Shown: one piece after another, positions 16,139 to 64,000 of the stretch
Position numbering within the stretch: position 1 is the stretch's first letter
How the letters are laid out: each line of letters opens with the position of its first letter
Source of the DNA: Candidatus Magasanikiibacteriota bacterium
Lineage (GTDB): Bacteria; Patescibacteriota; Patescibacteriia; Magasanikbacterales; UBA922
Direction: 5' to 3'
NCBI GenBank assembly: GCA_003482855.1
Contig: DMXO01000002.1
Location: forward strand, 28,060-92,059
DNA: 64,000 nt
Program-made: the position numbers and the translations under genes
The notes under the pieces: generated by a model
Told to the model about the DNA's origin: nothing
The model's database searches: none
The model's input: the letters and a program-made list of their open reading frames with translations, nothing else

Positions 16139-16142
16139 GCGC

Positions 16143-16177
16143 TTAAGCACTGGAGCACAAAATCACTGAAGCACTCT
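16143..16177. repeat. AAGCAC-motif intergenic repeat element (copy 1)
   Basis: aagcactggagcacaaaatcactgaagcac, about 85% identical to 31728-31757. Confidence 0.5.
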
Positions 16178-16199
16178 CTTGGTATGGGAGTGTTTTTTG

Positions 16200-16228
16200 T
16201 TGACAAAAACATATAAATTTGCTAACTT
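16200..16228 (+). promoter_or_regulatory. Sigma70-like promoter P1 of GC-rich island A (TTGACA-17-TAACTT)
   Basis: Perfect -35 hexamer, exactly 17-nt spacer, TAnnnT -10. Confidence 0.45.
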
Positions 16229-16276
16229 AATGTCCGTATTCATCCGCCAAATGGTGGGTTTCTCAAAGGAGGACCG

Positions 16277-16489
16277 ATGTCCCAGGACTCGCGCCACCGC
16301 CAGATCAGGCTCGTGACCCCCAACCCCCGCCGGAACGAGGTCAACACGCATATGTGCGAGCTGACCACCTGTGTCTGTCGCGGCAGGCGGGCAGCGTTGA
16401 CCTTCCGTCATGTGGAAGGCACACTCGCTTGGCTCTGCCCGAGCGCCAGCCGGCAGATCGACGCCACCACCTCGCGGCGGGTGGGCTGA
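16277..16489 (+). CDS. Island A gene 1: small Cys-containing protein (70 aa), unknown function
   Basis: AAGGAGG SD 4 nt upstream of ATG. High GC with G/C-rich third positions, in contrast to the AT-rich backbone. Cys at CELTTCVC and WLCP. Confidence 0.5.
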   Translation: MSQDSRHRQIRLVTPNPRRNEVNTHMCELTTCVCRGRRAALTFRHVEGTLAWLCPSASRQIDATTSRRVG

Positions 16490-16502
16490 CAAGGTCAACA
16501 GA

Positions 16503-16621
16503 GCCACAAGTCGAAGGAGGGAACGGTTTTGCAAGCGTGTATGCACGCCTTCAAAACCCAAAAGCCTATATGGCACACAAGGGAGGACGCATCGCTTGTA
16601 GATCCGCGTCCTCCTTCGACT
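16503..16621 (+). other. Structured inverted-repeat element unit 1 (agtcgaaggagg ... cctccttcgact)
   Basis: Perfect 12-bp terminal inverted repeat enclosing about 90 nt with internal hairpins. Left arm contains an SD-like GAAGGAGG. Begins right after the stop codon of gene 1. Confidence 0.55.
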
Positions 16622-16682
16622 ACTATCTTCAGCAAAATGATGAGAATAGTAGTAAAAACCACTCCAAGTAGTACTCGGCGTG

Positions 16683-16711
16683 GTTTTTTTGTTGACAAAT
16701 TCTTCTCTATA
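16683..16711 (+). promoter_or_regulatory. Sigma70-like promoter P2 of island A (TTGACA-17-TAATCT)
   Basis: Perfect -35, 17-nt spacer, TAnnnT -10. Embedded in an AT-rich spacer between the two GC-rich genes. Confidence 0.45.
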
Positions 16712-16762
16712 CATTAATCTCTCACTTGTCGCTTCAACCGCCATCACCACAGGAGGTGAAAG

Positions 16763-17161
16763 ATGGCAGGTAGCATGGTTTCGGTGAACATGGTACTCAT
16801 GGGCAAAGACTTCCAGATGGAAGTCACTGGGGTTCTCCACTCGTCGCGTGCGATGCGACAGAATGGGGGATCCCGACGTGGGACCGTCCTGATCGGCCGG
16901 ATCATCCAGGGCGAGATGACCGTGATGGACGAGGTGTGGGTGCTCAGGAACTTCGACCCCAACACCGAACCGATCCACGACAGGGTCATCAGGATCGAGA
17001 CCAGTCGAGCCTCCAGAGACAAGGCTGGCGTGAACACGATGGTCGGGGTCTGTCTGAGTGTCTCTTCCATGGGCGACATCATCGGGCGCGCGGCCGCCCG
17101 CGCCTACGACGCGGCTATGATCGAGCAGCGGCGCCAGATGCCGCCGCGTCCGGTGGCGTAG
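16763..17161 (+). CDS. Island A gene 2: 132-aa protein resembling a standalone EF-Tu domain-II-like beta-barrel
   Basis: AGGAGGTG SD 4 nt upstream. GTVLIGRIIQGEMTVMDEVWVL ... RVIRIETSRASRDKAGVNTMVGVCLSV pattern parallels EF-Tu domain 2 (GTVVTGRVERG..VG.EVEIV ... AGDNVGVLLRGV). High GC3. Confidence 0.5.
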   Translation: MAGSMVSVNMVLMGKDFQMEVTGVLHSSRAMRQNGGSRRGTVLIGRIIQGEMTVMDEVWVLRNFDPNTEPIHDRVIRIETSRASRDKAGVNTMVGVCLSVSSMGDIIGRAAARAYDAAMIEQRRQMPPRPVA

Positions 17162-17280
17162 CCACAAGTCGAAGGAGGGAGTGGTGACGATGGCAACAGC
17201 CTCAATCACCGCACGGCCCGATATTACATCGGGCAACGCAACAAGGAAGGCGCGTACGTTCATCGCGCCCTCCTTCGACT
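17161..17280 (+). other. Structured inverted-repeat element unit 2 (same 12-bp arms as unit 1)
   Basis: Starts at the stop codon of gene 2. Same gccacaagtcgaaggaggga left end and cctccttcgact right end as unit 1, with a different interior that has its own hairpins. Contains ATG 17190 after the SD (37-codon ORF running into AT-rich DNA). Confidence 0.55.
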
Positions 17281-17312
17281 GTTTTGATTATCAAATTTGG
17301 TAATAAGAATAG

Positions 17313-17344
17313 CAAAAAGAACCCTTAGTAAGGGTTCTTTTTAA
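17313..17344. terminator. Bidirectional hairpin terminator (agaaccctt agta agggttct + T-run)
   Basis: 9-bp stem with 4-nt loop flanked by A and T runs. Confidence 0.55.
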
Positions 17345-17359
17345 TGCGCTTATTTCTGT

Positions 17360-19316: not shown

Positions 19317-19324
19317 TGGAATTT

Positions 19325-19406: not shown

Positions 19407-21209
19407 TTATGACGTTAATTTTTTAAATTCTTCCATCAAAATATTTATTTTTTCTGTGTCATGAGCTTTCTCAGCTTGAATGATTTCTTGCTGCAATCTC
19501 TTTTGTTCTTGCTTCTGCCATTCATCCTTAATTAATACGCACAAATTGCTAAATTCTTTCTCAACTTCTCCAGACGTCAATGTAGCAAAATCCTTCTCAC
19601 CAGCCATGAGAAGTATATCAATTATATTTTCTTGACCAGGATGATCAAACTCGTCATGCAATTGGTCAATAATAATACCTCCACTAGTATACTGTCTTTG
19701 CACTGTTTCGTAAAGAGAAGCATAGGGACCTGTGGACAAGACAGAATTTCGAATTTCGAATTTCGAATTTCGAATTATATCTGGAAATCGCAACATTAAT
19801 ATGAGAAGACGTTCAATCAACAAATCTAAACGCGTCTTTTCTACAGATTGTATCGGTGTTGGTTTCTTGGTTTCTTGGTTTCTTGGTTTATTATTTTTTT
19901 CCTCACTTTTTACCCGCGCCATATCATCACGCAACACTGCCACATCCACACCCAGCCGAACGCCAAGTTCTTGCAACCAGTGATCTCTCTCTACTGCATA
20001 GGGTATGCGGCCAATTTCACGAAGCAATTCAGTTGCTATAACCTGCTTTTGTTTTGGATTATGTATATCTTTGCCTGCGAATGCTCGATTGAAATACCAC
20101 TGCATAACATCCTCTGCATGTGCGACTGCATCGAACCATGTCTGTTTATTTTGTTTTATACATTCATCTGGATCTTTGCCCGCTCCATCTGGAATCTGTA
20201 TAACACGCATATTCATACCCTCTTCTATAGCAATATCTATACCTCGTTTTGCTGCAGCGATACCCGCGGCATCTGCATCAAATGCCATATTCATATTTTG
20301 TGAATATCGTTTCAATAATCTCACTTGTTCTTCGGTCATTGCAGTACCGCTCGTTGCAATCACATTGCTCATCCCCGTCTGATGACATGCAATAACATCC
20401 ATTTGCCCTTCGACCATAACAATCAAATCTTTGTGTTTGATTTCTTTTTTTGCCTTGTTGAGTCCAAAGACTACACGTGATTTGTCATACACTGGTGTCT
20501 GTGGCGTATTTACATATTTTCCACCACTATGCTCTGTCTCTACAAGCACGCGTCCAGTAAATCCTACGACATTGTCGTGTATATCCCAAATAGGAAACAT
20601 AATACGCCCACGAAAACGATCATAAAAGCCTTTCATGCTTTGTATGTTTGCATTATCCTTTTTTATGGTAAGCCCTGATACAACGAGGTCATCTATTGCA
20701 AATCCTTTTTTGAGCAAATACTGCGTAAGCAAATCCCATTGATCTGGAATAAATCCTATCTGCCATTCAATAATTGTCTCATCGGTCAATTTTCTCGTAT
20801 GTAAATACTCCCGCGCTATTTTGGATGCATCCATCCTCAACAAGAAATTATGAAAAAATAATGCAGCAGCTCGATTGATTTCCTTTATTCTATTTTTTTG
20901 GCTACTCTGCACTTCATTTTGAAAATTATTCGTGAGTTGTATTCCTGCCTTGTCTGCCAGATATTTGAGTGCCTCACGGAATTCCATACCTTCCATTTCT
21001 TCGACAAATGTAAAAATGTCTCCGCCTTTCCCACAACCAAAACAATGCCAGCTTTGTCGCTCGCGACTTGCCATAAAGGATGGCGTCTTTTCATGATGAA
21101 ATGGACACAGACCCTTATGGTTGATACCAGCAGGCTTGAGTTGGACATACTCCCCAATCAAATCCACGACATCAAGTTTATCCTTGATAAGTTGTACATC
21201 ATCACTCAT
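19407..21209 (-). CDS. dnaG: DNA primase
   Basis: CPFHHEKTPSF...CFGCGKGGD zinc-binding domain, TOPRIM domain (MVEGQMDVIA, DAD motif). Confidence 0.92.
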   Translation of the reverse strand: MSDDVQLIKDKLDVVDLIGEYVQLKPAGINHKGLCPFHHEKTPSFMASRERQSWHCFGCGKGGDIFTFVEEMEGMEFREALKYLADKAGIQLTNNFQNEVQSSQKNRIKEINRAAALFFHNFLLRMDASKIAREYLHTRKLTDETIIEWQIGFIPDQWDLLTQYLLKKGFAIDDLVVSGLTIKKDNANIQSMKGFYDRFRGRIMFPIWDIHDNVVGFTGRVLVETEHSGGKYVNTPQTPVYDKSRVVFGLNKAKKEIKHKDLIVMVEGQMDVIACHQTGMSNVIATSGTAMTEEQVRLLKRYSQNMNMAFDADAAGIAAAKRGIDIAIEEGMNMRVIQIPDGAGKDPDECIKQNKQTWFDAVAHAEDVMQWYFNRAFAGKDIHNPKQKQVIATELLREIGRIPYAVERDHWLQELGVRLGVDVAVLRDDMARVKSEEKNNKPRNQETKKPTPIQSVEKTRLDLLIERLLILMLRFPDIIRNSKFEIRNSVLSTGPYASLYETVQRQYTSGGIIIDQLHDEFDHPGQENIIDILLMAGEKDFATLTSGEVEKEFSNLCVLIKDEWQKQEQKRLQQEIIQAEKAHDTEKINILMEEFKKLTS

Positions 21210-22350: not shown

Positions 22351-23901
22351 TTATTCATCGTTATCATCCTCATTTTCTTCTTCACGAACATCATCATCTT
22401 CGTCTTCCTCATCAGCACTTGTGGTATTTATATTTTCATCTCTCTTGGTCCACTTGAGATAATATACAATACTAAATGCCAAGAAACAAAGGAAAGCTAA
22501 ACTAGCCAAAACAATCAATGCGGTCGTACTAAACCATTGACGATGTTCGCTAAACACTAAAGGGTCCTTGTCTTCACCATCGACCATGGCATCATTGTCC
22601 GAATCAGGATTATTGGGATTGGTGCCTGCTTGCAATTCTTTGTCATCATCTATGCCATCACTGTCTGTATCTTTTTTGAGTGCATTGGTACCTTGTGTTT
22701 GTTCTGCTTCATCGGAAATAGTGTCTCCATCATCATCAGTATCTACATTGTTTCCTATACCATCAAGGTCCGTATCTTGAGATTCTTCACTATCTAGTGG
22801 AAACATATCAGTCATATCATCCACACCATCTCCGTCTGTATCTTTTTTGAGAGGATCCGTGCCTTTATTTTTTTCATCACCATCACTCAACCCATCTTCA
22901 TCTGTGTCTTTTTTGAGAGGGTCAGTCTTCATACTATATTCTTCTCCATCATTTAGACCATCCTCATCACTGTCTGCTTTGGCTGGATTGGTACCATTTT
23001 CTATTTCATCTTTATCCAAAATACCATCCGCATCAGTGTCTTTGGATGTAGGACTGCTCCCTTTTTCTTTTTCCTCACCATCAGTAAGTCCATCTCCATC
23101 TGAATCAACATTGTGAGGATCACTCCCAAATATTGCTTCATCACTATCACTCAATCCATCATTATCATCATCTGTATCAGCGTTATCTCCTGTGCCATCT
23201 TTGTCTATATCAGCCCATTCACTTTTGTTGGTTGGAAACAGATCTACATTATCATTATGTCCATCCCCATCAGTATCAGTACTTGTAGGAGAAAGCCCTT
23301 TGTCTACTTCTATTTTGTCATCCAGTCCATCGCCATCTGTATCTTTTTTTAGAGGATCAGAGCCAATCTCAGACTCCTTGGTATCAGCCAATCCATCATT
23401 ATCATCATCAGTATCTTGTTTATTTCCTATATCATCTCCATCCGTATCCAAATCCACATCATACGTTTGTGACTGCTGTTCTGTCTGAGTAATATTTGCG
23501 TCGACTGAATTACCCACCTGATCACGTGCATCAAGTTGTGTGAGTTTTGCAGAAAATTGTTGTTCACCTGCAGGAAGCGTATATTCTACCCAGACCTGTT
23601 TTGCTTCTTCAAATGTAAGATTGGGAACTGCGACACTTTTGATAAATGTACTTCCATTATAAAATTCAACGGTAAGAGATAATCGTGGCGCGCTATTATT
23701 TACCACTACGGTATAAAGCTTCACCGTGTCCCCTGCAAATGTCTTGCCTTCAGACATCCACACGCCTTGGCTACCGAGAAATCCCGTAACCGCATGAACA
23801 GAGACTGGAAATGATAATAAAACTAAGAGAGAAAATAAAAAAAATTTCATATGTATAAATAAATGATAAATGATAACTTTCACCCACGTATCATATATCA
23901 T
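22351..23901 (-). CDS. Surface protein with thrombospondin type-3 (DxDxDGxxD) calcium-binding repeats, C-terminal TM anchor and acidic tail
   Basis: Signal peptide, many DTDGDGLDD / DSDGDGLTDGEE repeats, C-terminal hydrophobic helix followed by poly-Asp/Glu. Confidence 0.7.
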   Translation of the reverse strand: MIYDTWVKVIIYHLFIHMKFFLFSLLVLLSFPVSVHAVTGFLGSQGVWMSEGKTFAGDTVKLYTVVVNNSAPRLSLTVEFYNGSTFIKSVAVPNLTFEEAKQVWVEYTLPAGEQQFSAKLTQLDARDQVGNSVDANITQTEQQSQTYDVDLDTDGDDIGNKQDTDDDNDGLADTKESEIGSDPLKKDTDGDGLDDKIEVDKGLSPTSTDTDGDGHNDNVDLFPTNKSEWADIDKDGTGDNADTDDDNDGLSDSDEAIFGSDPHNVDSDGDGLTDGEEKEKGSSPTSKDTDADGILDKDEIENGTNPAKADSDEDGLNDGEEYSMKTDPLKKDTDEDGLSDGDEKNKGTDPLKKDTDGDGVDDMTDMFPLDSEESQDTDLDGIGNNVDTDDDGDTISDEAEQTQGTNALKKDTDSDGIDDDKELQAGTNPNNPDSDNDAMVDGEDKDPLVFSEHRQWFSTTALIVLASLAFLCFLAFSIVYYLKWTKRDENINTTSADEEDEDDDVREEENEDDNDE

Positions 23902-24261: not shown

Positions 24262-24319
24262 AGTAGTAATGTTATTTTGTTAAAACAAAGTAAGTATACA
24301 ATAAAATAGATTATGTATC

Positions 24320-24345
24320 AAAAAATCCACGCTATATACGTGGAT
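24320..24345 (-). terminator. Rho-independent terminator of GC-rich cassette B (atccacg ctatata cgtggat + T-run on minus strand)
   Basis: Perfect 7-bp stem, 7-nt loop, followed on the minus strand by TTTTTT. Confidence 0.6.
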
Positions 24346-24391
24346 CTATGTTGGAAACTAAGAGGGCTGTGGACGCTGCGATTGTAGCCCT

Positions 24392-24730
24392 CTACTTGTT
24401 GCCGGCCTCGGCGAATTCACGGAGCAGGGACATGGCGAGATAGCCCGCGAGCCACCCGACCTGTCCCATGCCAGTGCGCCGACTGTCGACGTCATGGAGC
24501 ATCCGCCCGACGATCTCCTCGACCGTCTGGAGACCCGGCGAGAATGTTATCGCATCCTGCGAACGCATCTCGATGAACTGAGCGGCCTCCTCCTCACTGT
24601 GGAAGAACCATCTCATGAGCTTGGGGAGAAGGTGCTCGGGAACAAAACTCTCCTTGAACCGGGAGAGGCACCCTTGCGCCAGCTCGTAGCGCGCCCCTGT
24701 CGTGAGCTTACCGATCGCGTCCATGGGCAT
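24392..24730 (-). CDS. GC-rich cassette B gene: 112-aa hypothetical protein
   Basis: High-GC ORF with G/C-rich third positions, flanked by a consensus-like promoter and terminator. No recognisable family. Confidence 0.45.
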   Translation of the reverse strand: MPMDAIGKLTTGARYELAQGCLSRFKESFVPEHLLPKLMRWFFHSEEEAAQFIEMRSQDAITFSPGLQTVEEIVGRMLHDVDSRRTGMGQVGWLAGYLAMSLLREFAEAGNK

Positions 24731-24776
24731 TTATCCAATTTCCATCGCAGCGCCCTCTTAATTTCCAAAACATGAC

Positions 24777-24805
24777 TTTATATCATGATTAATACAAAAA
24801 GTCAA
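24777..24805 (-). promoter_or_regulatory. Sigma70-like promoter of cassette B (TTGACT-17-TATAAA, minus strand)
   Basis: Read on the minus strand: TTGACT at 24805-24800, 17-nt spacer, TATAAA at 24782-24777. Confidence 0.45.
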
Positions 24806-31711: not shown

Positions 31712-31714
31712 TTT

Positions 31715-31850
31715 CACTAAAGCACTGGGGCACAAAAGCACTTAAGCACCTATAGCATAGAAAAAATAAATCTATATTTAACAAAAAGCACCCCTTCAAG
31801 GAGTGCTTTAATGTTTGTGTGCTTAAATGCTTGAGTGAAACTAACTCAAA
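31715..31850. repeat. AAGCAC-motif repeat element copy 2, arranged as an imperfect inverted repeat around a hairpin terminator
   Basis: agtttcactaaagcactggggcacaaaagcacttaagcac ... gtgcttaaatgcttgagtgaaact. Internal aaagcacccc ttcaagg agtgcttt hairpin. Confidence 0.5.
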
Positions 31851-41269: not shown

Positions 41270-42163
41270 ATGTTTAAGAAAAAATATATTTCAACAAAAA
41301 ATAAGTTCACCATCTATACTGAATCAATTGGCAGTCAAAAAAATCCTCCGATAATTTTAATTATGGGAGCATTGAATCAAGGTCTATTTTGGTACGATTC
41401 TTTTTGCAGGTCATTATCAGAGAATAACTATTTTGTGATACGGTTTGATCATCGTGATACGGGATTATCTTCTGTCATCAATTATAAAGAATCACCTTAT
41501 AACTTGAATGATTTAACGGAAGATGTTGTTGATGTAATGAATGCCTACAATATTAATAAAGCGAATTTTGTAGGCTTATCAATGGGTGGTTATATTGCTC
41601 AGTTATTAGGAATCAATTACCCTGAGAAAGTAAATTCTCTAATTTTAATTTCGACGACATCAGATCATCGGCCATATATGGACGCAACAATGGGAATTTA
41701 TAATAACAAATATGATCTGCCATATCCAGAAAAATCATTTCTTAATTTTATTGAAAAAAGTAAAGTTCATCCACCGCAAAATGAATTAGAGATGGAAAAC
41801 TATCAAATTGAAGGCTGGAAAATAACATGTAATAATATCAGTGATGAAGATTTAAGTGAACTTGTCAAACTAGTGAAATTAGCAAATTTAAGAAGCAAAG
41901 ATAAATATTCAGCCTATAATCATGGGCTTGCTGTATTAAACTCAAAAGAAAGAACTCATTTACTAAACAGTGTTAAGGCTCCAACTTTAATCCTTCATGG
42001 AGAAAACGACCCATGTTTTCCTTTGGAGCATGGAAAAATGTTAAACAAATTGATAAAAAATTCAAATTTAGAAATTATTAAAAACATGGGGCATATGTTT
42101 TCTGTAAATGATGCGAGGTATTTATCGAATAAAATAATTAGTTGTATTCAGAAGTGTGTGTAA
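41270..42163 (+). CDS. Alpha/beta-fold hydrolase
   Basis: GLSMGGYIAQ nucleophile elbow, HG oxyanion region, C-terminal His. The track ORF starts at 41192, and Met 41270 (MFKKK) is more likely. Confidence 0.7.
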   Translation: MFKKKYISTKNKFTIYTESIGSQKNPPIILIMGALNQGLFWYDSFCRSLSENNYFVIRFDHRDTGLSSVINYKESPYNLNDLTEDVVDVMNAYNINKANFVGLSMGGYIAQLLGINYPEKVNSLILISTTSDHRPYMDATMGIYNNKYDLPYPEKSFLNFIEKSKVHPPQNELEMENYQIEGWKITCNNISDEDLSELVKLVKLANLRSKDKYSAYNHGLAVLNSKERTHLLNSVKAPTLILHGENDPCFPLEHGKMLNKLIKNSNLEIIKNMGHMFSVNDARYLSNKIISCIQKCV

Positions 42164-42185
42164 TTTGCCACAACTACGCATAACA

Positions 42186-42305
42186 TTGCCCATAAGCTGC
42201 GCTCCGTGCTCACTACGTTGCGCGCGGTGCTCGGGGCTTCGCCCACGTTTTGTTTTGCACCTGCCTGCGACTTTGATCGGCGCAAAACAAAACGTCTCAT
42301 GGGCA
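42186..42305. ncRNA. GC-rich highly structured non-coding element (candidate cis-regulatory RNA or sRNA)
   Basis: About 120 nt at about 60% GC with no ORF. Perfect 13-bp inverted repeat cgttttgttttgc/gcaaaacaaaacg (42246-42258 / 42282-42294), outer ttgcccat/atgggcaa pairing, additional GC stems. Lies between the hydrolase and GH3 genes. Confidence 0.4.
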
Positions 42306-42331
42306 AGTATCGTTAAGTGAAATAAATTACT

Positions 42332-44158
42332 ATGAATTACAATTTTTATCACCCAAAATTAATTACATTTCTGATCATAGCACTACTTTCAGTCGCGGTG
42401 TTAGTTTTTATTTTCCTTAAGCTACCATCTTCACCACCCGCCAATGAAAATATTAACTGCAATCAGATAAATCTTCCTTACCAAAATCCAACATTACCAA
42501 TTAACGAAAGAGTCGCCGATTTAATGAACAGAATGTCCATCGCGGAAAAAATAGGACAAATGGTTTTGATTGAAAAAAATAGTATCCATAGTCTCAATGA
42601 TATTACACAATATAATTTAGGAGCGCTATTAAGCGGTGGCGGAGCTGGGCCAAAACAAGATACTCCGTCAGCATGGCTTCAAATGGTAAACGATTTTCAA
42701 TCTGCTGCCAAAGATACTTGTTTAGGAATACCTCTTTTGTATGGAATTGATGCTATCCATGGTCATGGTAATGTTCTTGGAGCTACAATTTTCCCTCATT
42801 CCATTGGTTTGGGTGCAACCAGAGATCCGGATTTAGTCGAACGGGTTGCCAAAGCAACCGCCGAAGAAATGGCCGCAACCGGAATTTATTGGAATTTTGC
42901 TCCTAATCTTGATGTGGCAAAAGATATTCGTTGGGGGAAAACATACGAAACCTTTGGATCAGATCCAGATAATGTAGCGACATTAGGGACTGCCTATTTA
43001 AAAGGATTACAAAATTATTCAAGCAATTATTTAAATGTATTGGCCACTGCCAAACATTATGTCGGCGGAGGGAATATGGAATATGGAACTTCTCGTAATA
43101 AAAATTTCAAAGTAGAAGAAGGAAATATAACTTTGGATGAAATATCATTACGCCAAACCCACTTGATCCCTTTTCAAAAAGCGATAACTAACGGTATAAA
43201 GGTTGTAATGGTGGGTACGGCTACTTGGAACGGGAAAATGAACACTTCGAACTATTACCTTTTGACAGATGTGCTAAAAGAAGAACTGGGTTTTTCCGGA
43301 TTTATAGTTTCAGATTGGTATGGCGTGTATGCGGTTTCTGCTTCTAAATATGACTCTATAGTGAGTTCTATTAACGCTGGAGTTGATATGGTTATGACTC
43401 CATTTGAATATAAAGATTTTATATCTAATATACAGGAAGCTTTATCCAAAGGAGATATAACAAAAGAGCGAATAGATGATGCGGTAAAAAGAATCTTAAC
43501 AGTAAAATTTGAGACGGGTTTATTTGACCGTCCGCAATCTCTGCCAGAAGGATTATCGGTTATAGGCAACGACCAACATCGCGAAATAGCCAGAGAAGCA
43601 GTTCGTAAATCTCAGGTATTATTAAAAAATAATAATTCTGTATTGCCCCTATCTAAATCATTGAAAAAAATAATAGTGGCCGGTTCATCGGCCGACAATT
43701 TAGGCCGGCAGGCGGGAGGATGGACAACAGAGTGGCAAGGAATAGACGGTAATTATGGTATTTTGGGAACTACCATTCTTGAAGCCATAAAAAATACAGT
43801 TTCCAAAGATACAAAAGTTGAATATAACAAAGACGGAAATTTTTCAATAAAAAATAATCTTGCAGATATTGGAATTATTGTTGTCGGCGAAAAACCTTAT
43901 GCCGAAGGCTGGGGAGACATTGCTAATCCAAATTTAAGTCCTGAAGATCTATTGGCAATAGAAAAAGTGAAAACAAAAAGCGAAAAAATAGCAGTTATAA
44001 TAGTTTCTGGCCGCCCATTGAATATAAAAAAATATACCAAAAATTGGGACGCAATTATAGCGGCTTGGCTCCCTGGAAGTGAAGGACAGGGAGTAACAGA
44101 TATCTTGTTTGGAGATTTTGCTTTTACAGGGGTATTGCCAGTAGATTGGGAATACTAG
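42332..44158 (+). CDS. Glycoside hydrolase family 3 (beta-glucosidase/beta-hexosaminidase-like), membrane-anchored
   Basis: N-terminal TM, GH3 N-domain motifs (GIDAIHG, KHYVGGG, FSGFIVSDW) and C-terminal domain. Confidence 0.85.
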   Translation: MNYNFYHPKLITFLIIALLSVAVLVFIFLKLPSSPPANENINCNQINLPYQNPTLPINERVADLMNRMSIAEKIGQMVLIEKNSIHSLNDITQYNLGALLSGGGAGPKQDTPSAWLQMVNDFQSAAKDTCLGIPLLYGIDAIHGHGNVLGATIFPHSIGLGATRDPDLVERVAKATAEEMAATGIYWNFAPNLDVAKDIRWGKTYETFGSDPDNVATLGTAYLKGLQNYSSNYLNVLATAKHYVGGGNMEYGTSRNKNFKVEEGNITLDEISLRQTHLIPFQKAITNGIKVVMVGTATWNGKMNTSNYYLLTDVLKEELGFSGFIVSDWYGVYAVSASKYDSIVSSINAGVDMVMTPFEYKDFISNIQEALSKGDITKERIDDAVKRILTVKFETGLFDRPQSLPEGLSVIGNDQHREIAREAVRKSQVLLKNNNSVLPLSKSLKKIIVAGSSADNLGRQAGGWTTEWQGIDGNYGILGTTILEAIKNTVSKDTKVEYNKDGNFSIKNNLADIGIIVVGEKPYAEGWGDIANPNLSPEDLLAIEKVKTKSEKIAVIIVSGRPLNIKKYTKNWDAIIAAWLPGSEGQGVTDILFGDFAFTGVLPVDWEY

Positions 44159-48548: not shown

Positions 48549-48561
48549 AAAATCTACATCA

Positions 48562-48590
48562 TAAAACTCCCATCTAAGGGAGTTTTTATT
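48562..48590. terminator. Hairpin terminator (aaactccc atctaa gggagttt + T-run)
   Basis: 8-bp stem followed by TTATTTTT. Confidence 0.55.
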
Positions 48591-48669
48591 TTTGAACCGG
48601 CGCCGCTTCGATCGCCGGTTATTTGTGCGTTCAAAGCGGCGGTGCTCTTTGCATGCCGCATCCTTTCCG

Positions 48670-49158: not shown

Positions 49159-49202
49159 ATTCTTCTCCTTTCCCCCACGTTGACACACACAAAGAGCATT
49201 TC

Positions 49203-49231
49203 AAAATATCATTACTAAGTGATATTGTCAA
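49203..49231 (-). promoter_or_regulatory. Sigma70-like promoter of cassette D (TTGACA-17-TATTTT, minus strand)
   Basis: Perfect -35, 17-nt spacer, TAnnnT -10. Confidence 0.45.
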
Positions 49232-54153: not shown

Positions 54154-54182
54154 TTGACAAAATGGCATTTTTGTGATATTAT
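54154..54182 (+). promoter_or_regulatory. Sigma70-like promoter of cassette E (TTGACA-17-TATTAT)
   Basis: Perfect -35, 17-nt spacer, 5/6 -10. Confidence 0.5.
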
Positions 54183-54214
54183 CGCCACGGATTTTCCACC
54201 ACGTGAGGCCAAAA

Positions 54215-54367
54215 ATGGCCACGACCACGACCCTCGTGTGCATGGAGTGCGGACACCCGGAGATGGAGGTCATCGAATACGGTGACCACGAGGAACGGGT
54301 CAAGTGCCCCAAGTGCGGGCACGAAGCCTCGGTTCCCCCGGGCGCTCAGCCCGGTACTCCGGTCTAG
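54215..54367 (+). CDS. GC-rich cassette E gene: 50-aa zinc-ribbon mini-protein
   Basis: GAGG SD 6 nt upstream. CMEC...(18 aa)...CPKC. Strongly G/C-biased third codon positions. The track ORF start at 54173 lies inside the -10 box, so ATG 54215 is preferred. Confidence 0.5.
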   Translation: MATTTTLVCMECGHPEMEVIEYGDHEERVKCPKCGHEASVPPGAQPGTPV

Positions 54368-54393
54368 CACCGGACAAAACACCCCACACGCGG

Positions 54394-54502
54394 CCCCGGG
54401 CAATCGTGCCCGGGGATGATGTCATGAAAAACCACCCAATGACTATCTGAGTTCTCAACGTATATTTGAGAATTGGGATAGGAGGTTTGGGTGGTTTTTT
54501 GT
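54394..54502. terminator. Hairpin ccccgggca atcg tgcccgggg plus long bidirectional terminator (aaaaaccaccca ... tgggtggtttttt)
   Basis: 9-bp perfect GC stem directly after cassette E. 12-bp A/T-flanked stem serving both cassette E and the secA 3' end. Confidence 0.55.
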
Positions 54503-57550: not shown

Positions 57551-57579
57551 TTGACTTTTTACCATTTTTAGTGTACTTT
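57551..57579 (+). promoter_or_regulatory. Sigma70-like promoter P1 of island F (TTGACT-17-TACTTT)
   Basis: 5/6 -35, 17-nt spacer, TAnnnT -10. Confidence 0.4.
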
Positions 57580-57613
57580 ATGGGCAGAACTTTAACCCTT
57601 TGGGGGTCCTCCA

Positions 57614-57877
57614 ATGGTCAGGAACAACTGCCCCGCATGCGGGGCACAGGTCGAACACGGCACGCTCTGTGGCGCGTGCGGTCACCGGCTGGGTGAAGAA
57701 CCCGGCAACCGGCACTGCACGTGCACTGGCAACGTCTGCGTCCGCCTCCGGACGCAGATCGTCGTCCGCACGGTCGAGGTCGCTACGACCAAGGCCGACG
57801 GGACGGTGGTGCCCCACGGTACCGCCAGCTTCCTCTACGACCCCACGACCGGCCGGTCGCACCTGACGACCGGCTGA
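57614..57877 (+). CDS. Island F gene 1: 87-aa zinc-ribbon protein
   Basis: CPACG...(8 aa)...CGACG N-terminal zinc ribbon, additional CTCTGNVC. High GC3. GGGGG SD-like 7 nt upstream. Confidence 0.45.
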   Translation: MVRNNCPACGAQVEHGTLCGACGHRLGEEPGNRHCTCTGNVCVRLRTQIVVRTVEVATTKADGTVVPHGTASFLYDPTTGRSHLTTG

Positions 57878-58021
57878 CCCTCTGTCCCGCGCCCGACGCT
57901 CCCCGCGTTCGTGGGCCGGCGCGTGCTGTTCTGCGTATTTCGTGCATCAGCCCCCCTGGTGCATGAGGTACGTAGACGCGCGCGCCGGCCCTCCTTCCTC
58001 ATTATTAAACCAAAGTTACTC

Positions 58022-58050
58022 TTGACAAAGAGTGACTTTTTTGTTATTAT
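58022..58050 (+). promoter_or_regulatory. Sigma70-like promoter P2 of island F (TTGACA-17-TATTAT)
   Basis: Perfect -35, 17-nt spacer, 5/6 -10, in an AT-rich spacer between the two GC-rich genes. Confidence 0.5.
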
Positions 58051-58080
58051 CCGCCCGCTTCAAACAACCCGGGGTTCAAG

Positions 58081-58239
58081 ATGTACTGTGCCCACTGCGG
58101 CCTCATGCTCGTCATCGATATCGAAGGACATTGCCCCATCTGCGGGACAAAAATCGATGAGGCGTCGCCCTATGTGATGCCTGCGAGGCCGCCGATCGAC
58201 ACCGCCCCTACCCCCTCCGGACAGGGACAACATACCTAG
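58081..58239 (+). CDS. Island F gene 2: 52-aa zinc-ribbon mini-protein
   Basis: CAHCG...(12 aa)...CPICG, Pro-rich tail. High GC3. Confidence 0.45.
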   Translation: MYCAHCGLMLVIDIEGHCPICGTKIDEASPYVMPARPPIDTAPTPSGQGQHT

Positions 58240-58304
58240 TATCTTGCGTACGGAATTGAACATTCCAACGCGAGTGTATGTTCGTCCCGTTCATCCCTAA
58301 AATC

Positions 58305-58336
58305 AAAACCACCCTAAAAAATCGGGTGGTTTTAAA
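58305..58336. terminator. Bidirectional terminator (aaccaccc taaaaaat gggtggtt + T-run)
   Basis: 8-bp stem flanked by A/T runs. Serves island F and the hpf 3' end. Confidence 0.55.
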
Positions 58337-58358
58337 ATTCAAAATTTCAAATTCAAAA

Positions 58359-58703
58359 TTATTCCTGATATCCTTTTACCTCTCTTAATTCTTCCTTGTC
58401 TCTATTACGCATCTTCCCTTTCATCTTTTCCAATTCTACTTTGAGATGATCCTTCACTTTGTCAATCGCCTTGTACAAATCCTCAGATTCTTTTTTAATA
58501 TTAAATGCCTTGCCTGGCAGACCAACATTGAATTCCGCAAAGTAAATTTCTCCTTTGTTATGATGATTGGAATCCATGCCAACAATAATATCTATACTTA
58601 CAATATGATCAAAATATGTTTGCAGATCTTCTGCCTTTTCTTGTGCATACTGCCGTATAGCATCGGTCATTTCTAGACCTTTTGTTTGTACTTCAATAAG
58701 CAT
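58359..58703 (-). CDS. hpf: Ribosome hibernation promoting factor (short HPF/RaiA type)
   Basis: 114 aa, MLIEVQTKGLEMTDAIRQYAQEKAEDLQTYFD ... beta-alpha-beta-beta-beta-alpha pattern of sigma-54 modulation protein family. Confidence 0.85.
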   Translation of the reverse strand: MLIEVQTKGLEMTDAIRQYAQEKAEDLQTYFDHIVSIDIIVGMDSNHHNKGEIYFAEFNVGLPGKAFNIKKESEDLYKAIDKVKDHLKVELEKMKGKMRNRDKEELREVKGYQE

Positions 58704-59977: not shown

Positions 59978-61192
59978 ATGCTCGACCTCTCTCAAAATCC
60001 AATCGTCTACGTAACCCGCGATATTGAGCGGGCTTTGGGCTTGCCGATACATACTCTTGGTTATTATATTATCTCAAATTACTCTGAATTTGCAAATAAA
60101 AATTATAAAAGTCAAGGGAATGTGCTTCTGATACAAGAAGACTCCCCTCTCGATACCTGGCAACTTCTCAAACATAAAACAACTATTGATTTTGTCTCTA
60201 GGTTACATACACCCCATATTTTGCTTTTCAAAAATACACCACAAATTGAACGAATTTGTCAGGAACAAGGATGGAATTTCCTCAATCCATCTGCTGAATT
60301 TGCAAACAACGTGGAAGAAAAGATATCACAGGTTGCATGGCTTGGTGAGTTAACAAAATACTTGCCCCCTCATGAAATTAAATTGTGCAGAGATGTCACC
60401 TGGAATGAGAAGCCCTTCATTCTTCAATTTAATCGCGCGCACACAGGTCTGGGTACATTTTTTATTAATGACGAAAAAAAACTCAACGAATTACAGGAGA
60501 CATTCCCCAACCGCGAGGCACGCATAACAGATTATATTGTCGGTCCCATGTTTACGAGTAATAACGTAGTTACTCATACAGATATTCTCATGGGAAACAT
60601 CAACTACCAAATCACCGGGCTCAAACCATTTACAAAAAATCCATTTGCAACAATCGGGAATGATTGGGGTATAGTGAAAGAATTATTGAATGAGAAGCAA
60701 ATCAAAACATACAAAAAAATAACAACAGACATCGGCAACAAACTACGACAAGATGGATGGAAAGGGTTGTTTGGAGTAGATATTATGTTGGATGAAAAAA
60801 CTGGTGAATTATATTTGATAGAAATCAATGCACGGCAACCAGCAAGTACTACTTATGAAAGCATATTGCAACAAAAGACTTCGGACTTTAGCAAGCAGAC
60901 TTCAGATACGACATTTGAAGCACATACCAGGGCTCTTTTAGGCGAACGCGTAAGAGATATCATTAAAATTGAAGATGGCGCACAGATAATCCTTCGTAAC
61001 CAAGAGGGACTACGAATCACGAGTGACGAATTACAAGATAAGCTACAAAAAGATGGTTTTGCTATAACTCCTTATTCAAACACCAAGCCAGGCTCCGATC
61101 TCCTCCGTATCCAAAGCAAAACATCGATAATGAAAAAACACAATGAATTCAACGAGAATGGTCAAAGTATTCTCAACAATTTAGCAATGTAG
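59978..61192 (+). CDS. ATP-grasp domain protein, unknown substrate
   Basis: GLFGVDIMLDEKTGELYLIEINARQPAST ATP-grasp C-terminal signature. Start chosen at MLDLS; the track ORF begins at 59933. Confidence 0.55.
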   Translation: MLDLSQNPIVYVTRDIERALGLPIHTLGYYIISNYSEFANKNYKSQGNVLLIQEDSPLDTWQLLKHKTTIDFVSRLHTPHILLFKNTPQIERICQEQGWNFLNPSAEFANNVEEKISQVAWLGELTKYLPPHEIKLCRDVTWNEKPFILQFNRAHTGLGTFFINDEKKLNELQETFPNREARITDYIVGPMFTSNNVVTHTDILMGNINYQITGLKPFTKNPFATIGNDWGIVKELLNEKQIKTYKKITTDIGNKLRQDGWKGLFGVDIMLDEKTGELYLIEINARQPASTTYESILQQKTSDFSKQTSDTTFEAHTRALLGERVRDIIKIEDGAQIILRNQEGLRITSDELQDKLQKDGFAITPYSNTKPGSDLLRIQSKTSIMKKHNEFNENGQSILNNLAM

Positions 61193-61220
61193 CAATTTAA
61201 CAATAGAGCAATAAAACAAT

Positions 61221-61967
61221 ATGACAATAAAACAATTGTCACAACCAACCCTACAACTCATAAATCAATTCTTGCACCTTACATTCAATGGCAAAAGGGT
61301 TCGCACCCCCTATTTCAATAATCGTAGATCTGGCACGCGCGGTGCATTGCGTGTAAGCATTGGCAAAGGAAATGTAAACGATATAAAAGAAGAATTGAAA
61401 ATTTTGTCTTTGCGTGAAAAAATTGATTTGCGAGAACTTGATGAGCAGACCATTACAGAATTCATTGTTGATCACAAAATTGGTATAGATTGTTCTGGCC
61501 TTGTGTATTATATTTTGGATGAAGAATTGAAATCACAACACAAAAATCATCTCAAAACATATCTCAAATTCCCTGACGCAAAAAATCCATTGAGAAAACT
61601 TCTGATCAAACTTCGCCCTGTAGAAAATTGTAATGTAAAAACATTGGCGTACGAAATAAATAGCGCTGAAATCAACCTCAACAATATTCAGGCTGGAGAC
61701 ATGATTATAATGATGAACGCAGGCGCACGACATGATTATAATCACGTCATGGTTATTACACATATTGACGATACTACCATCCACTATGTTCATTCTTTTC
61801 AATATCCAGAAGATGGACTATACAATCATGGCGTACGCGAGGAAACTATTACGATTATCAATACTTCAAAATCTATAACAGAACAACAGTGGAACTGCGA
61901 AGAGATGAAACGATACAAAGACACCGCAGAAAAAATACAAATTCGAAGAATTAAAGCACTCAGTTAA
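61221..61967 (+). CDS. Putative permuted papain-fold (NlpC/P60- or YiiX-like) cysteine hydrolase
   Basis: IGIDCSGLVYYIL candidate nucleophile Cys, HVMVITHID candidate His. Low certainty. Confidence 0.3.
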   Translation: MTIKQLSQPTLQLINQFLHLTFNGKRVRTPYFNNRRSGTRGALRVSIGKGNVNDIKEELKILSLREKIDLRELDEQTITEFIVDHKIGIDCSGLVYYILDEELKSQHKNHLKTYLKFPDAKNPLRKLLIKLRPVENCNVKTLAYEINSAEINLNNIQAGDMIIMMNAGARHDYNHVMVITHIDDTTIHYVHSFQYPEDGLYNHGVREETITIINTSKSITEQQWNCEEMKRYKDTAEKIQIRRIKALS

Positions 61968-61969
61968 AT

Positions 61970-62090
61970 TCACCTAATTCATCTAATTTCTAATTCACCT
62001 AATAAAATATCAATCACAAATTTTTAATTTAGGTATTTTGAGTTTTATTAGAAATTAGGTGAATTAGGCAATTAGGTGAATTTTCTATTC
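61970..62090. repeat. Imperfect inverted repeat of TTCACCTAA/TTAGGTGAA motifs
   Basis: attcacctaattcatctaatttctaattcacctaat ... attaggtgaattaggcaattaggtgaat separated by about 45 nt of AT-rich sequence. Confidence 0.55.
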
Positions 62091-62091
62091 T

Positions 62092-63291
62092 ATGTTTCAG
62101 TTCCTCAAAAACTACCGTCCTACTATCATCCTCGCCATCCTCTTTTTGACTGGCGTTATTTTTATTCTTACTTTTTTTCCTCAAGGTTTTGTACCACTTG
62201 ACCAACGTGGTATTTTTTGGCGTTTTGCATATGAACCAACACTCAATCTCGAAGGTAGAACTCTCGAATATCCTGTTGGAGCATGGTTATATTTCAAATC
62301 TGTAACATTCCCTGCTGACCTACTACAAAACTTTTTTGAGACACCATGGGGTGCATATCATTTTTGTTTTAGCCTACGTATTGCTATTTTTTATCTTGCG
62401 ACATGGATCCTCACACTTGCAGGGCTCAAATTTACCACAGTAAAAAAACAAATTCTACTTGGCACTATATTTATATTGTTATTTATTTTTGCAAATCCTT
62501 TTTTGGTGCTCAGTACATTTGATATGGTGCCGACGTGTATTGCCTTCTTATCTTTATTTCTTTTTCAAAAAAATAAATATCTGGCCAGCGCCATACTACT
62601 TGCCATAGCAACAACCATAAAATGGTTCCCTGCTGTCCTACTACCCATATTTCTCATATATTTACTGCAAAACAAAAAACAATTGTTCTCATATTTTTTT
62701 TCATACACAGCAACAATTGTCTTCATAATCCTTATAGGATCATTTTCTGTTCCGTTTGCTATTCAGCAAGATGGTCTCTCGTATCATACAAATCGTGGTA
62801 TCCACAACGAAAGTCTATATGGAAATGTATTTGATATAATTGCTACAAAAGATATACACTATAGCACTATATTTAATTATGGCTCATTCAATATTGAAGG
62901 GACTTGGACAAACATTATTCTACCACTCATCTTTCCTATACTCATTTTGGGATTATTATTTGTATATTACAAAAGCTATAAAAACAAGAAAAACATTGCA
63001 TACTATTCTCTTATTGCGATTCTCATTTTTATATTATTGAACAAAGTCTTGTCTCCACAATTTATATTTTGGCTTATTCCATTCATCATCTATAACATAT
63101 TCAACAATAATAACACGGATCAAAAATTAAACAAACGACAGATCATTTCTCTTGGTGTATTTGCAATAATTCTTCTGCTTGGCCCCACAGTCCCCTTTTA
63201 TATGCAAGAATCACTTATACATTTTGGATGGGAAGCTATTTCTTTTCTAACATTGAGAAATATACTACTTATTTTTTTGTTATTTTTATAA
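62092..63291 (+). CDS. Polytopic membrane protein, DUF2029/GT-C-like putative glycosyltransferase
   Basis: 399 aa, about 11 TM helices, architecture like GT87/DUF2029 mannosyltransferases. Confidence 0.35.
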   Translation: MFQFLKNYRPTIILAILFLTGVIFILTFFPQGFVPLDQRGIFWRFAYEPTLNLEGRTLEYPVGAWLYFKSVTFPADLLQNFFETPWGAYHFCFSLRIAIFYLATWILTLAGLKFTTVKKQILLGTIFILLFIFANPFLVLSTFDMVPTCIAFLSLFLFQKNKYLASAILLAIATTIKWFPAVLLPIFLIYLLQNKKQLFSYFFSYTATIVFIILIGSFSVPFAIQQDGLSYHTNRGIHNESLYGNVFDIIATKDIHYSTIFNYGSFNIEGTWTNIILPLIFPILILGLLFVYYKSYKNKKNIAYYSLIAILIFILLNKVLSPQFIFWLIPFIIYNIFNNNNTDQKLNKRQIISLGVFAIILLLGPTVPFYMQESLIHFGWEAISFLTLRNILLIFLLFL

Positions 63292-63462
63292 AATAGTAAA
63301 CAATACTCCCCTCCTATTAGGAGGGGTAATGGGGAGGTCTTTCGTGTGATAAGACATGGTATCTTACTAAAGACCCCCTCTAACTCCCCCTAACAGGGGG
63401 AGAATGACTTGTTCAGTTAATTTTTATAACAAAAGCTATACTAATTACTACTTTTTATCTAT

Positions 63463-63497
63463 CAAAAAACAACTCCCATCAAAAAGAGTTGTTTTTA
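63463..63497. terminator. Bidirectional terminator (aacaactc ccatcaaaaa gagttgtt + T-run)
   Basis: 8-bp stem flanked by A and T runs. Confidence 0.55.
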
Positions 63498-63603
63498 ATT
63501 CTAGAACAAAGATATTCTCAATCCCAGAACTCCTCGGTGTGATGTGGCACACCGGAAAATCTCCTTCCTTATACCCGCCCACATGCGGGCGTCTCCCGAC
63601 CTC

Positions 63604-63807
63604 TTACGGCTTGGGCGCCTCGCCAGTGGCACCCTTCGCCGGTTCTTCCACTGTCTCCTTCGGGGGAGACGGCGGACGAGGCGAGGACACATGTGTCTTG
63701 CCCGCATGGCGAGCCCTCGTGGCTGCGAGGCCACAGAGCCCGTCGAGCTGACGCTCGGGCCGTGCAGGGCCGTGCCCGAACTTGGTGAAGCCAGAACCCG
63801 GCTTCAT
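63604..63807 (-). CDS. Island G gene: 67-aa Pro-rich small protein, translationally coupled (ATGA overlap) to the upstream partial gene
   Basis: High GC3 ORF. Its ATG overlaps the TGA of the partial CDS 63804-64000. Confidence 0.35.
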   Translation of the reverse strand: MKPGSGFTKFGHGPARPERQLDGLCGLAATRARHAGKTHVSSPRPPSPPKETVEEPAKGATGEAPKP

Positions 63808-64000
63808 TTCTTACCCTTTCCGCGAGCCCGTCTGAGGGCTCGAGACACATCCGTCAACGGAAACCGACCCAATACCTCTGGTTCGCGATTCCAGATGGTG
63901 TTGTGGTCGTAGACGACCACCGTTTCTCCACCACTCTTGTGCACATCAGCGACATCATCGAGTCGCACTGCGCACCGTTCGAAGTGGGGACGGCGGTTGT
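63804..64000 (-). CDS. Island G partial CDS (C-terminal 65 codons; gene continues beyond the window end)
   Basis: Open minus-strand frame ...HKSGGETVVVYDHNTIWNREPEVLGRFPLTDVSRALRRARGKGKK* with no stops and high GC. Confidence 0.4.
   Translation of the reverse strand, partial: NRRPHFERCAVRLDDVADVHKSGGETVVVYDHNTIWNREPEVLGRFPLTDVSRALRRARGKGKK

Follow-up and report, generated by a model that had tools for sequence, protein, structure and literature searches.

We analysed 64,000 nt of contig DMXO01000002.1 from a Candidatus Magasanikiibacteriota bacterium (Patescibacteria); this whole stretch is referred to below as the window. Its overall GC content is 39.7% (0.397), and it is interrupted by seven GC-rich segments, here called islands, which are flanked by core genes (sodA, rpoD, dnaG, cysS, secA, secDF, murB, an mraY-like gene and a hibernation-factor gene). 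A 120-nt scan with a threshold of GC ≥ 0.55 placed these segments at 16212-17295 (island 1, GC 0.57), 24326-24781 (island 2, 0.57), 42148-42322 (the 42-kb island, 0.51), 48563-49192 (island 4, 0.58), 54170-54471 (island 5, 0.58), 57559-58305 (island 6, 0.60) and 63500 to the window end (island 7, 0.61), and found none within positions 1-16000. The first-pass annotation, made by a model from the sequence alone, had described GC-rich segments with GC-rich third codon positions in an AT-rich backbone. The scan bore this out, as GC at third codon positions (GC3) was 0.72-0.86 in the open reading frames (ORFs) of the islands and 0.23-0.41 in 49 long host ORFs, and the two ranges did not overlap.

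Six of the seven segments hold self-contained units, or cassettes, each with a TTGAC[A/T]-N17 promoter, a Shine-Dalgarno (SD) sequence, a small ORF, a structured 3′ untranslated region (UTR) and a terminator. In the frames proposed by the first-pass annotation, GC at the three codon positions (GC1/2/3) was about 0.6/0.45/0.8. The periodicity GC3 > GC1 > GC2 was seen only in these frames, while antisense and out-of-frame ORFs gave a mirror or shifted pattern. The island proteins were poor in Lys, Asn, Ile, Tyr and Phe, and their Arg/Lys ratio was 3.5 compared to 0.53 in the host. The GC-rich tract corresponded to the predicted transcribed segment: it began at about the -10 box or transcription start and stopped before the AT-rich terminator, and the promoter and terminator on either side of it were AT-rich and host-like. 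Transcription-coupled deamination bias was set aside, since the islands showed no strand skew. Apart from the promoter hexamers and a 3′ RNA duplicated inside island 1, no sequence was shared between islands, so that what unites them is architecture, not homology. The mini-cassette family proposed earlier therefore stands as regards its shared grammar and its independent small-protein units, but not as a set of homologous islands.

The promoter motif TTGACW-N17-TANNNT occurred eight times in the window compared to 2.16 times expected from shuffles, and six of the eight occurrences marked the 5′ edges of islands. An earlier count of seven TTGACA/T-N17-TAnnnT promoters in seven cases was only partly confirmed; a strict count gave six of six, as the 24.8-kb cassette carries TATAAA, the last promoter lies outside the window and the 42-kb island has neither ORF nor promoter. 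The best sigma-70 matches in the 47-64 kb region (11 of 12 positions, with TG) were those of islands 5 and 6b. The same grammar was found in relatives, where 10 of 11 strict matches (in L007, L120 and L121, see below) preceded sequence of GC ≥ 0.48.

Sharp composition switches and textbook promoters and terminators could also suggest contamination, or the assembly artefact or engineered construct that the first-pass annotation had considered. The combination sodA-island 1 was present on 20 contigs, and island 1 with both its junctions was 99.9-100% identical in six independent groundwater assemblies (Rifle-type runs; ENA, Logan and JGI assemblies). For other flanking genes, 18-19 contigs were retrieved, the longest of 540 kb, and the same junctions occurred on contigs reaching 275-617 kb. 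With identical junctions in at least six independent assemblies, and with diverged orthologous islands in other species from other studies, we give an artefact next to no credence. Public pipelines called a spurious 366-aa antisense ORF (16163-17263, - strand) over the whole of island 1 (L001-L005), which lacks the island codon periodicity.

The cassettes and their products

Island 1 consists of two tandem cassettes on the + strand. Cassette 1a opens with the promoter TTGACA-N17-TAACTT (16200..16228), followed by a 70-aa ORF (C1a, 16277..16489; GC1/2/3 0.58/0.59/0.86), a conserved 3′ RNA (copy A, 16510..16649; folding z = -8.3, all z-scores being computed against dinucleotide shuffles) and an intrinsic terminator (16654..16690). 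Cassette 1b has the promoter TTGACA-N17-TAATCT (16692..16720), a 132-aa ORF (C1b, 16763..17161; GC3 0.82, ratio of nonsynonymous to synonymous substitution rates (dN/dS) 0.44), a second 3′ RNA with the same motif (copy B, 17168..17312; z = -8.9) and its own intrinsic terminator (17314..17342). C1b is a putative beta-barrel protein that gave a weak EF-Tu domain-2-like signal (PF03144, E = 3e-4, under the cutoff).

Copy A forms a closing helix of 12-13 bp (GUCGAAGGAGGG/CCUCCUUCGAC) around a multi-hairpin junction, with an AT-rich hairpin behind it. The general form of the island-1 3′ RNA is a closing helix GUCGAAGGAGGG/CCCUCCUUCGAC, in which an SD-like strand is paired with an anti-SD-like one, with hairpins inside and an AT-rich hairpin and terminator after it. 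This RNA follows both ORFs in the window species and in the related L007, and across these four copies 12 of the 42 predicted pairs showed compensatory change. An ORF overlapping it was not conserved in frame, which argues for a function as RNA. The closing helix in 16510-16621 and 17168-17281 sets a perfect SD-like GAAGGAGG against an anti-SD-like CCUCCUUC; SD- or anti-SD-like runs were also seen in the 3′ UTRs of C6a (CCCUCCUUCCUC), C5 (UAGGAGGU) and C7 (GAGGAG, AAGGAGA).

Cassettes 2 and 4 are encoded on the - strand. Cassette 2 comprises the promoter TTGACT-N17-TATAAA (24777..24805), a helical 112-aa ORF (C2, 24392..24730; GC3 0.81) and a 3′ UTR hairpin with terminator (24318..24391; z = -4.2). 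Cassette 4 comprises the promoter TTGACA-N17-TATTTT (49203..49231), a 162-aa ORF (C4, 48670..49158; GC3 0.80, dN/dS 0.37) and a 3′ UTR (48555..48669; z = -5.6) with the conserved stem CCGCCGCUUUG/CAAAGCGGCG and a terminator that is shared bidirectionally (48563-48586). C4 was always located downstream of a DUF8128 gene. The window encodes two DUF8128 proteins (28209-30794, + strand, and 49302-50738, - strand), the larger of which also has DUF87 and TrwB/VirD4-type coupling-protein domains. As cassette 4 directly follows the smaller DUF8128 gene in all four loci (window, L120, L121 and L012), C4 may be functionally tied to the DUF8128 protein.

Cassettes 5 and 6 lie on the + strand. The promoter of cassette 5, TTGACA-N17-TATTAT (54154..54182; 11 of 12 consensus positions, with TG), precedes an ORF for a 50-aa zinc ribbon (C5, CxxCGH...CxxCGH, 54215..54367; GC3 0.82) and a 3′ UTR (54368..54500; z = -6.9) made up of a hairpin (54394-54415) and a long terminator hairpin (54427-54500). 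Island 6 again holds two cassettes in tandem. In the first of these, the promoter TTGACT-N17-TACTTT (57551..57579) is followed by an 87-aa, seven-Cys zinc ribbon (C6a, 57614..57877; GC3 0.86, dN/dS 0.58), and its 3′ UTR (57878..58010; z = -9.4), kept in three species, has a long stem GGGCCGGCGCG/CGCGCGCCGGCCC and then an anti-SD-like CCUCCUUCCUC. The second starts with TTGACA-N17-TATTAT (58022..58050; 11 of 12, with TG) and encodes a 52-aa zinc ribbon (C6b, 58081..58239; GC3 0.72), followed by a conserved 3′ UTR with terminator (58240..58333; terminator at 58305-58333).

Cassette 7 (63464..64000, - strand) is cut by the window end. It has a terminator at 63464-63496, 3′ hairpins at 63535-63554 and 63574-63591, and a 67-aa ORF (63807-63604) which an upstream ORF, only the 3′ part of which is in the window, overlaps by ATGA; the same kind of overlap was found in the C6b operon of L120. 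The promoter lies beyond the window end and reads TTGATT...TAAAAT in L117.

The strong hairpins reported earlier at the cassette ends were confirmed, with 3′ UTR z-scores of -4 to -9.4 and identified terminators. Most coding sequences (CDSs) gave z-scores of only -0.3 to -3 (C6a CDS, -5.8), and selection for a specific CDS fold found no support in these values. When the window was compared to Rfam at gathering scores, a tRNA-Gln was the sole match. At E ≤ 5 the islands contained one weak match, to CRISPR-DR29 (54390-54426; 24 bits, gathering score 39). No 3′ motif common to different islands was found.

The 42-kb element (42160..42335; z = -4.05) is outside the cassette class. This GC-rich, rod-like segment without ORF or promoter sits between an alpha/beta-hydrolase gene and a GH3 gene and had no Rfam match. 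Its predicted fold is a long branched rod with the outer stem UUGCCCAU.AG/CU.AUGGGCAA and a perfect 14-bp inner stem ACGUUUUGUUUUGC/GCAAAACAAAACGU. One possibility is an element that affects RNA processing or stability, another a palindromic GC cluster.

The three CxxC...CxxC zinc ribbons that the first-pass annotation had recognized, C5, C6a and C6b, matched Pfam Zn_ribbon families. Beyond such generic zinc ribbons and the sub-threshold EF-Tu domain-2 match, Pfam, PHROG, PADLOC and NCBIfam returned nothing (in PHROG just weak, non-significant zinc-ribbon matches), and no island protein matched a toxin-antitoxin or defence family. Five ORFs were looked up in a collection of about 15 billion proteins: the exact sequences of C1a, C5, C6a and C6b were absent, and C2 was found in a cluster that holds only hypothetical proteins of Magasanikbacteria. 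The description of the products as undescribed small proteins thus proved apt. C4 and C1b, but not the small zinc ribbons, were also searched in sets of 5.8 billion and 1.84 billion proteins, where only the proteins themselves and syntenic Magasanikbacteria orthologues were retrieved. Neither tblastn of C4 and C1b against phages, nor blastn of islands 6 and 1 against phages and plasmids, nor profile-guided scans of IMG/VR with the island proteins searched gave a match. A full-text literature search returned no description of such maintained GC-rich cassettes.

Islands in related species

Loci of relatives were anchored on SecA homologues, whose identity to the window protein was 79% in L120 (same species as L007), 79% in L121 (another species), 74% in L122 and L123, and 70% in L124; SecDF-based scans of genome and metagenome contigs yielded mostly distant taxa without islands. 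L007 belongs to a related, much more AT-rich species. It shares the order sodA-island-rpoD-dnaG with the window, and its sodA-rpoD island likewise consists of two cassettes with the same grammar, in which the sole C1b homologue found (P0003, 47% identity) is encoded. The promoter regions of cassette 1a and of the first cassette in L007 are homologous (87% over 24 nt). The protein-set search gave a single real C4 homologue (38% identity), GC-rich within an AT-rich contig and preceded by TTGACA-N17-TATTTT; C4 orthologues have 159-170 aa and 37-41% identity. In L120 and L121 the C4, C6 and C7 sites are occupied by GC-rich islands that include orthologues of C4, C6a and C6b, and both species keep the promoters of cassettes 6a and 6b. 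Cys pairs and termini are conserved in the orthologues of the island proteins.

The comparison with related genomes for empty sites, proposed in the first-pass annotation, showed that the C1 site is empty in L124, where the secA-secDF gap has only mildly GC-enriched small zinc-ribbon ORFs, and L123 has no islands. At the C5 site L120 and L121 have other genes, which are not GC-rich, and C5 is not conserved there. L007 has an extra island between dnaG and a kinase gene, a site that is empty in the window. The gap of L123 that corresponds to the C6 site, flanked by the hibernation-factor gene and secA, contains genes for a HicB-like antitoxin and a ParE-like toxin of normal AT-rich composition (8982-9759); this site is a hot spot for small accessory modules in general. 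A more distant member of the Patescibacteria, L074, has an island of 0.56 GC downstream of a DUF8128 gene (9093-9707, - strand) with an ORF for a 204-aa cytidine/dCMP-deaminase-like protein (HPCGVCR motif).

Host genes of the window and of L007/L120 showed 72-77% nucleotide identity. Third positions at codons for conserved residues differed in 39-43% of cases in the islands and 39-45% in the host, and dS according to Nei-Gojobori was 0.9-1.65 in the islands, with host genes at 1.75 or more. While dN/dS was 0.06-0.08 in host genes, it was 0.33-0.58 in the islands. Judged from these substitution patterns, the island ORFs are as diverged as the host genes, and their proteins evolve several-fold faster. 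Codon periodicity, the dN/dS values and the conserved Cys ligands identify the island ORFs as real coding genes, and of the small ORFs, whose conservation had been in question, four (C1b, C4, C6a and C6b) have clear orthologues.

Exchanges between G and C made up 25-48% of the synonymous differences in islands compared to about 1% in the host, and GC3 of the islands in the relatives was 0.64-0.79 where that of the host was 0.24-0.31. In a two-state model, the host AT bias would at such divergence have brought GC3 to about 0.5-0.6, with differences nearly all between G/C and A/T. The contrast between this expectation and the observed share of G-C exchanges indicates that the islands are at their own compositional equilibrium. 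Host-like synonymous divergence together with this turnover shows that the GC-richness has been maintained and is not that of an un-ameliorated import. As a cause of the present composition, recent un-ameliorated import is refuted by these sequence comparisons, and acquisition from a high-GC donor, as proposed in the first-pass annotation, could not be upheld as stated: no homologue of the sequences searched was found beyond related Magasanikbacteria loci, and orthologues are syntenic. An ancient foreign origin is conceivable, namely acquisition from a high-GC donor with amelioration still incomplete. It would account for codon and amino-acid usage like that of an organism with 62-68% GC, for the position of the islands in intergenic hot spots and for the somewhat lower GC3 in the more AT-rich relatives (0.64-0.79 compared to 0.72-0.86 in the window). 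We nevertheless consider it improbable. The islands are older than the split of species that are near synonymous saturation (dS 0.9-1.7), their share of G-C differences (25-48%) departs from the almost exclusive G/C-A/T differences expected, searches with C4 and C1b gave no donor homologue, and the tract begins at the transcription start, with a host-type AT-rich promoter and terminator on either side.

Conservation was unevenly distributed within the cassettes. Between the window and L007/L120, identity was 0.69-0.76 for promoter plus 5′ UTR and 0.69-0.82 for the 3′ UTR, versus 0.61-0.69 for the CDS. Copy B was 82% identical to its L007 counterpart and the CDS 69%; for C6b the values were 75% (3′ UTR) and 64% (CDS). 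The 3′ UTRs of C4 and C7 have conserved stems, and the 3′ hairpins of C7 were nearly invariant in three species, while the C7 CDS region aligned poorly. The RNAs might therefore be the primary products, either as 3′-UTR-derived or dual-function small RNAs (sRNAs) or as RNA partners of the encoded proteins, and the ORFs would be secondary proto-genes that arose because GC-rich sequence has few stops. Such a role would fit the 3′ UTRs as the best conserved parts (the C7 hairpins are about 100% kept, the ORFs are not), the compensatory changes and z-scores of -8 to -9 of the duplicated island-1 RNA, and the persistence of the 3′ RNA when the ORF changes (see below). In AT-rich genomes, RNA genes are typically GC-rich over just the transcribed stretch, and the GC-richness of the islands is confined to their predicted transcribed segment. 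Four ORFs, however, have clear orthologues with dN/dS of 0.33-0.58, Cys ligands and codon periodicity, no Rfam family was matched even at E ≤ 5, and the islands have no 3′ motif in common. RNA as the primary product is therefore unlikely in our view.

The ORFs, or payloads, are exchanged between conserved flanks. The ORFs in the first cassette of island 1 are unrelated between the window species (70 aa) and L007 (102 aa, EF-Tu domain-2-like), while the promoters and 3′ RNAs around them are homologous. Where the window and L120 encode the C6a zinc ribbon, L121 has an unrelated GC-rich ORF of 50 aa instead, with breakpoints adjoining the promoter and the 3′ UTR, where homology resumes. Between the same promoter and 3′ UTR, the C6b operon contains one related zinc-ribbon ORF in the window, three in L120 and two in L121. 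Adjoining the C7-site island, L121 also has a gene for a 680-aa Na+-translocating pyrophosphatase (2178-4220, + strand; NCBI PLX29046.1; GC1/2/3 0.61/0.46/0.82; 42% GC relative), with a TTGACT-N17-TAAGAT promoter about 280 nt upstream, a GC-rich hairpin 3′ UTR and an AT-rich terminator. Composition and grammar of the cassettes thus also apply to a large gene of known function. Public gene calls place a 596-aa antisense ORF over this gene.

Such exchanges might draw on a GC-rich mobile pool (plasmid, virus or other bacteria, so far unsampled) from which ORFs are repeatedly swapped in, with promoter and 3′ UTR serving as recombination arms or sites. Unrelated GC-rich ORFs between homologous flanks at two loci, the variation in presence and copy number, and the pyrophosphatase gene with island grammar beside the C7 site are in line with this idea, and so is a tyrosine recombinase with similarity to XerA and integron integrases. 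This recombinase (40344-41156, - strand, 271 aa), the only one seen, lies about 1-8 kb from the nearest islands. Its best model was XerA (NCBIfam, 217.9 bits, cutoff 220), and it scored 207 bits on the integron integrase model TIGR02249 (cutoff 265) in two split stretches. As it stays under both curated cutoffs and resembles a housekeeping Xer, it is probably, from its sequence, such an enzyme. Further, the synonymous divergence of C1b, C4, C6a and C6b equals that of host genes, as for vertical descent, the cassettes have no shared repeat or core site, and among the sequences searched there was no viral, phage or plasmid homologue and none outside Magasanikbacteria-type loci. A mobile pool therefore seems rather unlikely, slightly more so than RNA as the primary product.

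A tentative reading of the islands

The reading that we favor, with a probability of roughly 45%, is that the islands are native, long-resident and vertically inherited expression cassettes at hot-spot sites, which encode fast-evolving small proteins and whose transcripts are kept GC-rich by selection. A conserved chassis of near-consensus sigma-70 promoter, structured GC-rich 3′ UTR and intrinsic terminator would drive a payload of one or a few small ORFs (for zinc ribbons, an EF-Tu-domain-2-like barrel or orphan proteins), and payload ORFs could be duplicated, deleted or swapped for unrelated ones. The most likely cause of the GC-richness would be selection on the nucleic acid for a stable, nuclease-resistant and highly abundant transcript in an AU-rich cell. 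The correspondence of GC-rich tract and transcribed segment favors selection at the nucleic-acid level over a foreign origin. The payload proteins are most likely accessory or conflict-type factors (regulators, defence, immunity), as suggested by their fast evolution, the hot-spot sites and the presence of toxin-antitoxin genes at one of these sites in L123.

Several observations weigh against these native, selected cassettes. Most CDSs are no more structured than shuffles, so that selection at the RNA level would have to act on GC content itself, which is an unusual demand. Together with the shifted amino-acid usage, which has the look of a pervasive nucleotide bias, the lack of specific structure in the CDSs also makes a local mutational or gene-conversion bias possible. 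Replaced payloads are again GC-rich, and the L121 pyrophosphatase gene has island-like composition and grammar, which together leave room for a GC-rich external gene pool. Clear orthologues come from two species only. The AF2 models of C4 and C1b were weak (pLDDT 57 and 64), and a Foldseek search of PDB found no match at E ≤ 0.001.

A more speculative idea, to which we give a little less weight than to the mobile pool, is a 'composition-coded' gene class: one clade of the candidate phyla radiation (CPR) would keep strongly promoted genes in a GC-rich code that is poor in Lys, Asn and Ile and orthogonal to the AT-rich remainder of its genome. This might shield the RNAs made from these genes, and their translation, from agents acting on AU-rich RNA or on tRNAs for A/U-rich codons. 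Candidates for such agents would be AU-directed RNases or toxins, anticodon nucleases of phage defence, dormancy, or expression in a GC-rich host cell. The chassis would again allow payload swaps, and the C1b barrel could form a translation-related ribonucleoprotein with the adjacent multi-hairpin RNA of island 1.

If native cassettes kept GC-rich by selection are indeed what the islands represent, base composition alone would be an unsafe indicator of recent horizontal transfer, as a 'foreign' signature can be a stable property of native genes. Small proteins and 3′ RNAs of Patescibacteria would be missed or called on the wrong strand by standard gene callers, a blind spot of CPR annotation. 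The islands would further provide a natural system for studying the force that holds a few hundred bp at 60-65% GC in a 37-40% GC genome, and bear on the debate over selection versus biased gene conversion in bacterial GC content. Hot spots with chassis and payload would suggest conflict-type functions in organisms whose interactions with their hosts are poorly understood.

Some other features of the window were also recorded. AT-rich tandem arrays of 6-nt units (TTTCGAA, TGCAAAA, TTTCAAA and similar) occur at 19747-19779, 45960-45992, 47777-47809, 58331-58363 and 32222-32252, mostly in short gaps by gene ends or terminators; the one at 19747-19779 lies inside dnaG and another directly after the cassette 6b terminator. 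A 516-aa protein (22351-23901, - strand) consists of Asp-rich DxDxDGxxD repeats, of the thrombospondin-type-3 class that binds calcium, with a 66-nt periodicity in the DNA; it has a signal-like segment at the N-terminus and a membrane anchor at the C-terminus, and a holin-like (PF04020) gene follows. Long intergenic AT-rich palindromes or inverted repeats are located at 10459-10556, 31709-31843 and 61973-62068 and gave chance-level miRNA matches in Rfam. A distant 36-nt inverted pair (56884-56919 and 60872-60907) is 89% complementary and consists of CTGAAGTCTGA-like units.

Comparison with known systems

Retrons and diversity-generating retroelements were set aside, as no reverse transcriptase was found among the annotated genes. 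The cassettes resemble phage morons and P2/P4-type defence hot spots in their autonomous promoter-ORF-terminator layout, core-gene flanks, atypical composition, payloads that vary at fixed sites, orphan proteins that evolve fast, and the occupation of one such site by toxin-antitoxin genes in a relative. Unlike morons, they are chromosomal, located between housekeeping genes without phage context or phage homologues, their composition has been kept over long vertical descent, and they have conserved 3′ UTR structures.

With integron cassettes and CALIN elements they share a small ORF followed by an imperfect palindrome of 60-110 nt, the tandem arrangement (islands 1 and 6), and a tyrosine recombinase in the window with partial similarity to integron integrases. 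However, the palindromes GUCGAAGGAGGG/CCCUCCUUCGAC (C1), GGGCCGGCGCG/CGCGCGCCGGCCC (C6a) and CCGCCGCUUUG/CAAAGCGGCG (C4) differ from each other and are without RYYYAAC/GTTRRRY cores. Each cassette has its own promoter and terminator, while integron cassettes are mostly promoterless and use a common Pc. Also, the 3′ structure stays when the ORF changes, whereas in integrons ORF and attC move together.

Like the GC-rich noncoding RNA regions found by the GC-IGR/DIMPL approaches, the islands are long, GC-rich, structured intergenic segments in an AT-rich genome, with 3′ elements that show some covariation; unlike them, they are mostly true CDSs under purifying selection and had no Rfam match. Dual-function and 3′-UTR-derived sRNAs (SgrS/SgrT, RNAIII/hld, CpxQ) likewise combine a small ORF, a conserved structured RNA and a terminator in one short transcript, as predicted here, and the 3′ part of the cassettes is better conserved than the ORF. 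The cassettes, however, come from an unrelated phylum, and we know of no precedent among the named dual-function sRNAs for such an extreme compositional contrast. The mobile GC clusters of yeast mitochondria, which are dispersed GC-rich palindromes in AT-rich intergenic DNA, are the best analogy for the element at 42160-42335. The other islands differ from these clusters, as they are 0.3-1.1 kb long, gene-bearing and syntenic and have no shared repeat. We place the islands in a known kind, that of autonomous accessory small-gene cassettes. Unusual for these are a GC-rich composition kept for long within a CPR genome that is itself AT-rich, and the layout of conserved chassis and variable payload.

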